From NCBI RefSeq assembly GCF_016026235.1, contig NZ_CP065613.1: 64,000 nucleotides of DNA. One strand, written 5' to 3'. A model generated the notes under the pieces. That model did not search any database. It saw only the letters and a list, made by a program, of their open reading frames with translations, and was not told where the DNA came from. The position numbers and the translations under genes were made by a program. The DNA is from Escherichia coli. GTDB lineage: Bacteria; Pseudomonadota; Gammaproteobacteria; Enterobacterales; Enterobacteriaceae. Of this stretch, positions 59,776 through 62,618 are shown in pieces (the first letter of the stretch is position 1; each line of letters starts with the position of its first letter).

Positions 59776-60035
59776 AAGGGGCCGCAGCCCCTAAAACTTA
59801 TTATACTAAGCCTGAGCTCGGCATCCATCTAATTAGCTATATTGAATGACTGCACGACCGCGAATTCCGCCACTCAGAAGTTTTTCAGCCACAGTGATGG
59901 CGTCACTGAGCGGATAAACGGTAGTGAGACTATCCATTCTGGACTCTGGCAAATACTATACCGCCTGTTGCCAGATTGCTGCTCTTTTCTCTTTCGCGAA
60001 CATGACGCTATCAATCCCTTTCAGTGGATTTGCCC

Positions 60036-60941
60036 CTATATTTCCAGACATCTGTTATCACTTAACCCATTACAAGCCCGCTGCCGCAGATATTCCCGTG
60101 GCGAGCGATAACCCAGCGCACTATGCGGATGCCATTCGTTATAATGCTCGAACGCCTCTGCAAGGTTCTTTGCTGCCGTTAACCCGTCTGGTTTGGGCAT
60201 GATACTGATGTAGTCACGCTTTATCGTTTTCACGAAGCTCTCTGCTATTCCGTTACTCTCCGGACTCCGCACCGCCGTGTTCTTCGGTTCAAGTCCCAAC
60301 ATCCGGGCGAACTGGCGTGTTTCATTAGCCCGGTAGCATGAACCATTATCCGTCAGCCACTCCACTGGAGACGACGGAAGATCGTTGCCGAAGCGGCGTT
60401 CCACCGCTCCCAGCATGACGTCCTGTACTGTTTCACTGTTGAAGCCGCCGGTAGTCACCGCCCAGTGCAGTGCCTCACGATCACAGCAGTCCAGCGCGAA
60501 CGTGACACGCAGTCTCTCTCCGTTATCACAGCAGAACTCGAACCCGTCAGAGCACCATCGCTGATTGCTTTCTTTCACGGCCACTCTGCCTGTATGTGCC
60601 CGTTTCGATGGCGGTACAGCAGGTTTTCGCTCAAGCAACAGCGCATTCTGGCGCATGATCCGGTAAACACGTTTGGCATTGATCGCAGGCATACCATCAA
60701 GTTCTGCCTGTCTGCGAAGCAGCGCCCATACCCGACGATAACCATACGTGGGCAGCTCTCCGATAACATGGTGTATACGGAGAAGCACATCCGTATCATC
60801 AGTGTGACGACTGCGGCGGCCATCCATCCAGTCATCGGTTCGTCTGAGAATGACGTGCAACTGCGCACGCGACACCCGGAGACAACGGCTGACTAAGCTT
60901 ACTCCCCATCCCCGGGCAATAAGGGCGCGTGCGCTATCCAC
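60036..60941 (-). CDS. insD: IS2 InsD (OrfB, DDE integrase core)
   Basis: 301-aa ORF ...[36 protein letters not shown]... Confidence 0.85.
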
Positions 60942-61264
60942 TTTTTTGCCCGTCCATATTCAACGGCTTCTTTGAGGAGTTCATTTTCCATCGTTTTCTT
61001 GCCGAGCAGGCGCTGGAGTTCTTTAATCTGCTTCATGGCGGCAGCAAGTTCAGAGGCAGGAACAACCTGTTCTCCGGCGGCCACAGCAGTAAGACTTCCT
61101 TCCTGGTATTGCTTACGCCAGAGAAATAACTGGCTGGCTGCTACACCATGTTGCCGGGCAACGAGGGAGACCGTCATCCCCGGTTCAAAGCTCTGCTGAA
61201 CAATTGCGATCTTTTCCTGTGTGGTACGCCGTCTGCGTTTCTCCGGCCCTAAGACATCAATCAT
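60899..61264 (-). CDS. insC: IS2 InsC (OrfA)
   Basis: [56 protein letters not shown]... Confidence 0.85.
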
Positions 61265-62618
61265 CTGTACTCCAATGACTAGTCTAAAAACTAGTATTAA
61301 GACTATCACTTATTTAAGTGATACTGGTTGTCTGGAGATTCAGGGGGCCAGTCTATTCAGCGTGACACCACGCAGAATAAACGGAGCCATATTGCCCATC
61401 AAATCCATCCCCTGAGCCATGCCGCAGGCTGCAACAATACTGCCATATCGGACCCCGGCGCAGGCATTTCTCCAGTAACAGGGGGTTGTATTGTATTTTA
61501 TTGTGCCGGTTCAGGTGTGCGTTTCCCGGCGCGTCAGCACCGGCTTAACCAAATTCAACAGGGATAAAATAGTGCAAATAACCGAAGTATTACTTGCAGA
61601 ATCGGGGGAAGCATCCGGGGTTTTATTCAACAGGCTGTAGATCACTGACTGCGTCTGTTGGCCGTCCACTTCACGCGTCATTCGACCAGAGTAAATATTG
61701 ATGATTACTAGATTCGTGTATTTTATCAGGCATTTTACTTGCGAATAAATCCCCTTGCTATCCAGCGAAACCACACAGGTAGCTATTACCATATGTGGTA
61801 ATACACTAGTTACAGGAAAAATATGCAAGTTCCGCAATACGTTGTGTGTTGCTCCTTAGCCAGGATCTTTTCTTCCATGCGAGATATGACAACAATTTTG
61901 AGGAAGGATGTTCGTAACTGGTAGAGTTACTACAACAAGCATGGGAGGCTCTGACTCTGACAGACATTGTACTGTGGAATGTTGTTACAGGTTGGGGCGG
62001 CAACCGTGCCAGGAGACCATGAGCCGTTCACGGCATTAAAGGCCACACTTCAGTCGTTTACATTCCCTATGGTGGCAGGCATCTTCCATTAAGGCGTCAG
62101 AGCGTTACCAACGTTATGTTGTCATGGCTCATCTTTCATAGTCGATGCTTATCTGGTGGCTGAAGCTAGCCGCAGATAAAGAGTGTGAAGTTGATACCAT
62201 GGAGTGGAGTGACGTACAGGCAGGAGATTCGCTCTATGCAGGGTTGTGAGATGAATTCAAACCGGCTGGCAGCGCCAGTGATATTCGAAGATTCGTCCGG
62301 TTGTTACCCAGTATGCATTAAAAACCCAGACATTATGGACAATATAACGGCTTCTACAACAAGGAAGTGCCTGTTTACCATCCGGGTGTAATGACTCACC
62401 TTTGTGGGCTTTTGCCCGTCGCGCTCTTAACGTTGAAGACATTCTCTGCCTGCCGATTCAGGACTGCGACAAAAGCCATATCTGGCTACTGGTCAAGGAT
62501 GACCAGCGTCTGGAGTAGGTGATAAGCCAAATAGATAAGCTGGAATATGTGGTGAAAGTGCAACGTAATCAGTCCAACCCGACGATGTTTAACAAGATTG
62601 TGGTGTTTTTTCAGTAAG

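Follow-up and report, generated by a model that had tools for sequence, protein, structure and literature searches.

The locus lies in the right third of the window (the whole 64-kb stretch of Escherichia coli DNA that was analysed), which a comparison with strain 54214 identifies as a mosaic island that carries fecIRABCDE, a group II intron, a shf-capU-virK-lpxM cluster, a BCCT transporter gene, a gene for a DUF2254 protein, and then acuR and the features downstream of it. From acuR rightward, these features are:

59119..59775, plus strand: acuR, an intact gene for a TetR-family regulator
59833..60024, minus strand: distal part of an acuI remnant, with a premature TAG at 59956-59958 and the native TAA at 59833-59835
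60020..60024: left copy of the target-site duplication, TTCAG
60025..61355, minus strand: IS2, complete copy, 1331 bp
60036-60941, minus strand: IS2 orfB (InsD), 301 aa, DDE integrase core
60899..61264, minus strand: IS2 orfA (InsC), intact, 121 aa
60941-60947, minus strand: A6G -1 frameshift motif in the orfA/orfB overlap
61356..61360: right copy of the target-site duplication, TTCAG
61361..61468, minus strand: proximal part of the acuI remnant, 36 codons, up to the breakpoint 61468|61469
61572..61956, plus strand: pseudogene of an island-protein family
62377..62617, plus strand: 5'-truncated ilvN fragment (codons 17-96)
62619..63404, minus strand: gene for the DeoR-family regulator of a deoxyribose (deoK) operon

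The IS2 copy and its target site

The ends of the element and its imperfect terminal repeats were read from the sequence. The end at 61355 (IRL) starts on the complement with TAGACTGGCCCC, and the end at 60025 (IRR) with TGGATTTGCCCC; the two can be aligned as imperfect repeats over approximately 40 bp, and both the length of the element and its terminal repeats conform to the IS2 pattern in the IS3 family, in which an element of approximately 1.3 kb has imperfect terminal inverted repeats with 5'-TA/TG ... CA-3' ends. The translated orfA product matches the Pfam HTH_Tnp_1 family (E = 1.8e-19), and the orfB product, taken from the list of open reading frames (ORFs), matches rve (E = 1.1e-18) and rve_3 (E = 1.8e-18). 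Together with the A6G motif, which was located in the sequence, these genes form the two-ORF arrangement of a helix-turn-helix orfA and a DDE/rve orfB connected by a -1 frameshift; the organization of IS2 and the role of the motif have been described (PMC3219604). Against an element annotated in RefSeq as 'IS3-like element IS2 family transposase', the copy has 3 mismatches in 1331 positions (99.8 per cent identity), which makes it near-identical to IS2 with RefSeq-annotated copies as the reference. The placement of a 1331-bp IS2 at 60025..61355 in the original prediction is therefore borne out by the ends, the ORFs, and the match to an annotated element.

The 64-kb window contains no other copy of IS2. 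Relative to the known IS2 of E. coli (IS3 family, IS2 group; insC/insD of K-12), it has the same length of 1331 bp, the same imperfect terminal repeats, the same orfA/orfB pair with its A6G window, the same DDE/rve domain, and the same 5-bp target duplication, and the sole difference is the insertion site. Judged from its intact ORFs and ends alone, the copy is apparently competent for transposition.

The pentamer TTCAG can be read directly on both sides of the element, in agreement with the 5-bp target-site duplication that IS2 generates. In E. coli SK1144, the flanks are contiguous, IS2 is absent, and TTCAG occurs once. Specifically, window positions 58900-60024 correspond to positions 3001-4125 of the SK1144 locus and window positions 61356-63500 to positions 4121-6265, so that the two segments overlap by exactly 5 bp, which are TTCAG.

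To survey the site more widely, we used a collection of 5,426 complete E. coli genomes, from which the window's own genome is absent, and an empty-site probe of 228 bp that spans the reconstructed uninterrupted site. The empty site is essentially complete in 631 of the 5,426 genomes, including those of strains 042 and O104:H4 2009EL-2071. The filled left junction and the filled right junction were each found in one genome of the collection, and in both cases this genome is FDAARGOS_943. Its flanks are 100 per cent identical to the window wherever the two can be compared. Its copy of IS2 has been invaded by ISSso6 and further insertion sequences (ISs), which leave the two junctions 11.6 kb apart. 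Additionally, FDAARGOS_943 carries an IS5-family element in the DUF2254 gene and an IS1 at 58938-45. These comparisons indicate that the insertion is common by descent to the window's genome and FDAARGOS_943 and that both have since diverged through IS activity.

Because the site is filled only in FDAARGOS_943 and empty in 631 genomes, we regard the insertion at TTCAG as simple, lineage-specific, and young relative to the island. The single TTCAG of SK1144 and the 631 empty sites corroborate the earlier view of a simple insertion flanked by TTCAG. The accompanying 'probably recent' holds in the sense that the insertion is young compared to the island and present in 1 of 5,426 genomes, but its recency is relative, since the FDAARGOS_943 copy has already been invaded by other ISs. 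The exact IS2 junction can serve as a lineage marker common to just one of the 5,426 complete E. coli genomes. As a finding, the insertion is ordinary: both the IS and the type of site are familiar, and the sister genome with the insertion has already been annotated by RefSeq.

The acuI remnant and its partner acuR

Once IS2 and one TTCAG are taken out, the minus strand from 61468 to 59836 is a run of 99 in-frame codons, which contain no indels relative to intact homologs and are followed by the native TAA. The remnant matches the NCBIfam AcuI equivalog model NF051456 (E = 1.8e-31; 109 bits; profile positions 227-323 of 325), the YhdH subfamily model TIGR02823 (E = 3.6e-24), and E. coli YhdH (PDB 1o89; E = 4e-18), to which 41 of 95 residues are identical. 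In comparison with an intact protein of 325 aa from a large protein collection (P0007), 89 of the 99 residues are identical (90 per cent). This protein and an intact protein of 323 aa (P0008) score 471 and 468 bits, respectively, against the AcuI equivalog model, above its cut-off of 440 bits. A Pfam search of the remnant reported no family, and the NCBIfam AcuI model was required for naming it. On these alignments, the ancestral lineage of the remnant is a member of the AcuI/YhdH family, as had been proposed for the joined flanks. We specifically looked for a lack of similarity to MDR oxidoreductases on formal alignment, and the match to the AcuI model speaks decisively against it.

An AcuI/YhdH enzyme is expected to have NADPH-dependent acrylyl-CoA reductase activity or to confer acrylate resistance, and the phenotype of YhdH and AcuI has been described (PMC3338564). 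Within this group of acrylyl-CoA reductases (MDR012 subgroup; PDB 1o89, 3nx4, 5gxe), the 99 codons of the remnant align end to end with the C-terminal positions given above, and the remnant is placed convergently with acuR, as in intact loci. In contrast to the intact genes, it comprises approximately 30 per cent of the gene and contains a premature TAG and IS2, and therefore it cannot be functional. A full-length AcuI has both ADH_N and ADH_zinc_N domains, approximately 325 aa, and a score above the equivalog cut-off of 440 bits, whereas the remnant scores 109 bits; by this comparison it is a fragment derived from an AcuI family member and not a member gene. Its lineage is paralogous to the chromosomal YhdH (43 per cent identity over 95 residues), whereas metagenomic AcuI sequences, which group with Enterobacter-type proteins, are 90 per cent identical to the remnant.

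Five loci served as comparators for the boundaries of the remnant: L004, a fragment of the same lineage that is carried on a plasmid; L014, a longer remnant on a chromosome; and L008, L009, and L010, which are intact. The in-frame collinear alignment with the intact acuI genes of L010 and L009 defines its distal part. In place of the TAG at 59956-58, L010, L008, and the near-identical L014 have CAG, and L009 has AAG. The HMM and PDB alignments pass straight through this codon, and homology continues for 40 further codons in the same frame, up to the TAA at 59833-35. Judged from these alignments, the TAG is a CAG-to-TAG nonsense mutation and not the end of the gene. The stop that had been read as the end of the segment is thus a real in-frame stop, but it is premature, and the native TAA marks the 3' end.

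On the other side, the homology breaks off abruptly at 61468|61469, a point that lies 61 codons above the TAG and 99 above the native stop. All five comparators lose similarity exactly at 61468 (DNA identity of 98.7 per cent for L004, 99.0 per cent for L014, and 80-84 per cent for L008, L009, and L010), and no IS end remains at this junction. The original prediction was right that homology is lost upstream, but it put the loss at about 50 codons. Likewise, the stop at 61511-13 does exist in the remnant's frame, but it lies 14 codons into unrelated sequence. The L014 remnant extends beyond the 61468|61469 junction, retains 186 codons with CAG at the position of the TAG, and is cut on its 5' side by an IS21-family element; it represents an earlier stage of acuI decay. 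The L004 fragment, which lies beside the STb gene on an enterotoxigenic E. coli plasmid, also raised a possible link to Tn4521 and its defective IS2. This candidate was rejected because BLAST showed no similarity between IS2 and the IS3-family element next to the fragment.

The empty-site genomes that we examined contain the same truncated remnant with the same TAG, and RefSeq calls in them a 35-aa 'alcohol dehydrogenase' coding sequence that ends at the TAG. Because both lesions are already present in genomes with an empty site, the truncation and the nonsense codon are, by this comparison, older than IS2, which upholds the earlier claim that the host gene was fragmentary before the insertion. 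For annotation, the true extent of the remnant is 59833-61468 minus IS2, and not the 35-aa coding sequence of related genomes.

The remnant lies tail to tail with acuR, and a G+C-rich hairpin (59778-59791) is situated between them. The acuR product scores 267 bits against the NCBIfam AcuR model NF051457 (cut-off of 247 bits), and RefSeq uses the same gene name. In both L009 and L010, the intact acuI converges with a TetR gene whose product scores above the AcuR cut-off, and the DNA identity of 80-84 per cent to these loci begins upstream of acuR and extends across the gene into the remnant. With an equivalog-level score and an acuI neighbor, acuR is a predicted acrylate regulator, and in the window it is an orphan, as its acuI partner is dead. 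In strains 042 and LR-33, acuR is broken by IS100, which suggests that the acuR-acuI module is dispensable.

Decayed DNA and the deoK module to the right of IS2

The interval 61356..62618 had been described as decayed DNA with no credible ORF. It is indeed devoid of intact genes, but it can be resolved into the acuI remnant up to 61468, a pseudogene, and an ilvN fragment. The pseudogene (61572-61956) has relatives in WP_001167444 and WP_001167426, to which it is 41-49 per cent identical in tblastn (E ~1e-21), with stops within the alignment; overall, it contains one frameshift and several in-frame stops. At the DNA level, it is approximately 68 per cent identical to intact genes of this family, which is common on E. 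coli islands, and a Pfam search of an intact relative returned no family. For 61469-61571 and 61957-62376, tblastx against related loci gave no match beyond the pseudogene.

The ilvN fragment is identical to K-12 ilvN at 219 of 242 DNA positions (90 per cent), with 87 per cent amino-acid identity. It lacks one nucleotide, CAG has become TAG at 62516-62518, and RefSeq labels it a pseudogene, 'acetolactate synthase small subunit'. Homology begins sharply at 62377. A remnant of ilvB at 62240-62336, suggested by eye from a resemblance to the IlvB C-terminus, was rejected, as neither tblastn with K-12 IlvB nor sensitive blastn found one. The stop of the ilvN fragment is one base away from that of the DeoR-family gene (NCBIfam DeoR, E = 1.8e-68), which forms the right border of the decayed spacer and is followed in relatives by genes for a ribokinase, a fucP-type permease, and an aldose epimerase. 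In Salmonella, deoQKPX presumably adjoins ilvBN, and an origin as donor DNA brought along with the deoK operon would explain the ilvN fragment.

A deoK operon has been described on pheV islands (PMC7545054, PMC6455142). As in the deoK islands of pathogenic E. coli (pheV-associated PAI II-AL862 and LAC PAI), the module comprises a DeoR-type regulator, a ribokinase-like kinase, a fucP-like permease, and an epimerase, and it likewise resides in a mosaic, IS-rich setting. It differs from them in being joined to acuR-acuI', a junction found in a subset of strains only. In strain EcPF14, the module from 61533 rightward is 95 per cent identical and has a different left neighbor. Because of this other neighbor, we consider the acuR-acuI' block and the deoK block to be separate modules that were joined near 61468-61533.

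Order of events and alternative explanations

We consider it highly probable (approximately 93 per cent) that an intact IS2 integrated, as a lineage-specific simple insertion, into an island-borne acuI remnant that was already non-functional. A convergent acuI/acuR pair, arranged as in intact Enterobacteriaceae loci, would have entered a mosaic E. coli genomic island. The 5' part of acuI would then have been lost, with a 186-codon intermediate surviving in other strains, and at 61468|61469 another deletion, or a joining event, would have fused the remaining 99 codons to an unrelated island module that consists of the pseudogene, the ilvN fragment, and the deoQKPX deoxyribose operon. The CAG-to-TAG mutation at 59956-58 may have followed; the relative order of these three losses is the one that we find most plausible. 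Finally, IS2 would have entered TTCAG and duplicated 5 bp in one lineage, to which the window's genome and FDAARGOS_943 belong.

IS2 transposes by asymmetric cleavage of one end, which leads to a figure-of-eight, then to a minicircle, and then to integration with staggered target cuts (PMC3219604, PMC3299598). By analogy with this published work, the present copy would have arrived by the two-step copy-out/paste-in route of the IS3 family, via figure-of-eight and minicircle intermediates, and its 5-bp duplication would result from the staggered cuts at integration. The insertion was probably selectively neutral and has no evident consequence, since its target was already a dead fragment, E. 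coli keeps the chromosomal yhdH, and acuR has been knocked out by IS100 in other strains. Its biological weight is thus small, as it reflects the usual decay that ISs cause in a mosaic island of the pathogenicity type. It does provide an example of ordered pseudogene erosion, in which truncation, nonsense mutation, and IS insertion are followed by nested ISs in a sister strain.

The reverse order, in which acuI was still functional until IS2 entered it and the other two lesions came later, might seem natural given that IS insertion is a common cause of gene inactivation and that the neighboring acuR is still intact. However, the 631 empty-site genomes have the same 99-codon remnant, those examined have both the TAG and the 61468|61469 junction, and the insertion is found in only one other genome, FDAARGOS_943. 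Precise excision of IS2 would not account for one TTCAG per site across hundreds of strains that are unrelated, and we regard this order as hardly credible. Still closer to nil is the probability that the similarity to YhdH/AcuI arose by chance in a frame created by joining the flanks: the fragment is short, contains a stop, and has no reported Pfam domain, but such a frame would not be expected to match the AcuI equivalog model and YhdH at the E-values given above, or to have 90 per cent amino-acid and 80-84 per cent DNA identity to intact acuI with conserved acuR synteny.

A regulatory effect is somewhat less improbable than either of these, yet still very unlikely. IS2 insertions have been reported to alter the expression of neighboring genes, for example by creating an ampC promoter, and the transposase strand of the present copy is directed at the 3' end of acuR. 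Readout from the IRR end, or termination within IS2, might alter transcription antisense to acuR or shield the gene from the deoK module. Against such an effect, a consensus scan of 59700-62700 revealed no promoter-like site, the G+C-rich hairpin separates the remnant from acuR, and the IS100 insertions into acuR of strains 042 and LR-33 suggest that the module is dispensable. A terminator scan of 59700-62700 yielded terminator-like sites at chance level only, and a search of 58800-64000 against Rfam, with E-values of up to 0.1, returned no match to a non-coding RNA.

The insertion into the acuI remnant is one of several in its neighborhood. The following ISs were found in other strains, with positions given in window coordinates:

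58938-45: IS1, in FDAARGOS_943
59033-41: ISEc23, in S1-INA-02-B
59315-22: IS100, inside acuR, in 042
59655-59: IS100, inside acuR, in LR-33
61465-78: ISEc23, in FORC_029
61745-50: ISEc23 and an IS3-family element, in 042
62153-57: IS2, in RIVM_* strains, 54214, and others (16 among the matches listed)
62486-93: IS2, in S1-INA-02-B

Across the approximately 3.6 kb from acuR to deoQ, a handful of strains thus have at least nine independent insertions of five IS types: IS2 at three sites, ISEc23 at three (at one of them with an IS3-family element beside it), IS100 at two, and IS1 at one. It is conceivable, though we think it unlikely, that this stretch is a preferred landing zone, in which a local property of the DNA could attract transposases; the insertion in the window would then be one example. 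On the simplest reading, the acuR-deoQ stretch is dispensable DNA that tolerates insertions.

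IS insertions from acuR to the deoQ-like gene

The stretch that runs from acuR, an intact gene of a TetR-family regulator, to the deoQ-like gene (window 58938-62493) carries at least nine independent IS insertions across different E. coli strains, as placed on the window by mapping from comparison loci L001, L003, L012, L015, L016, and L017. IS2 occupies three different sites, ISEc23 three, IS100 two, and IS1 one; beside one of the three ISEc23 insertions lies an IS3-family element. Either this DNA is a sink for ISs or it is a hot spot. In FDAARGOS_943 (L003), the only sister genome, among complete E. 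coli genomes, that shares the IS2 insertion in the acuI remnant, the shared copy is itself broken by ISSso6 and further ISs at the equivalent of window 60773, and the two IS2 junctions are 11.6 kb apart.

Pseudogenes and spacer right of the acuI remnant

Two pseudogenes lie between the junction at which acuI homology ends (61468|61469) and the deoQ-like gene:

61572-61956, plus strand: multiply disrupted island-protein pseudogene of an uncharacterised family (relatives WP_001167444 and WP_001167426)
62377-62617, plus strand: 5'-truncated ilvN fragment, 90 per cent identical to chromosomal ilvN

WP_001167426 is labelled 'peptidoglycan recognition protein family', and a Pfam search with the intact relative of the first pseudogene gave no match. 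In the ilvN fragment one nucleotide is deleted and a CAG has become TAG; its stop and that of the deoQ-like gene are one base apart; it is probably donor DNA that was carried along with the deoK operon. For the rest of the spacer (61469-61571, approximately 100 bp, and 61957-62376, approximately 420 bp), no relatives were detectable among the loci examined.

Other acuI fragments and a hairpin at the acuI end

In related genomes (L001, L002, L012, and L015), RefSeq places on the acuI remnant, at the equivalent of window 59956-60063, a 35-aa 'alcohol dehydrogenase' (WP_000527664.1 or WP_000527665.1). This CDS is an annotation artefact: what was called is part of a pseudogene, up to the nonsense TAG. 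Further fragments of the acuI lineage are found at L004:3501-3838, on plasmid pGCUET01-2, and at L014:1927-2520. The former, from a pig ETEC plasmid, is a 330-bp piece with ISCro1 on one side and an IS3-family element on the other, and is next to the STb enterotoxin gene. The latter is a remnant of 186 codons that lacks the TAG and is cut by an IS21-family element.

Between the stops of the convergent acuR and acuI remnant, a G+C-rich hairpin (GGGGC-CGCA-GCCCC, window 59778-59791) is followed on the minus strand by TTTT. This arrangement makes it a possible former terminator of acuI; a terminator scan made no call at this hairpin.

Remainder of the island

No tRNA genes were found in the window. 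The remainder of its right part (approximately 39500-58900) is a mosaic island, with a cargo of fecIRABCDE, a group II intron, the shf-capU-virK-lpxM cluster, a BCCT transporter, and a DUF2254 gene. Three copies of IS1 lie to its left:

13269-14037: IS1
36213-36982: IS1
38019-38786: IS1
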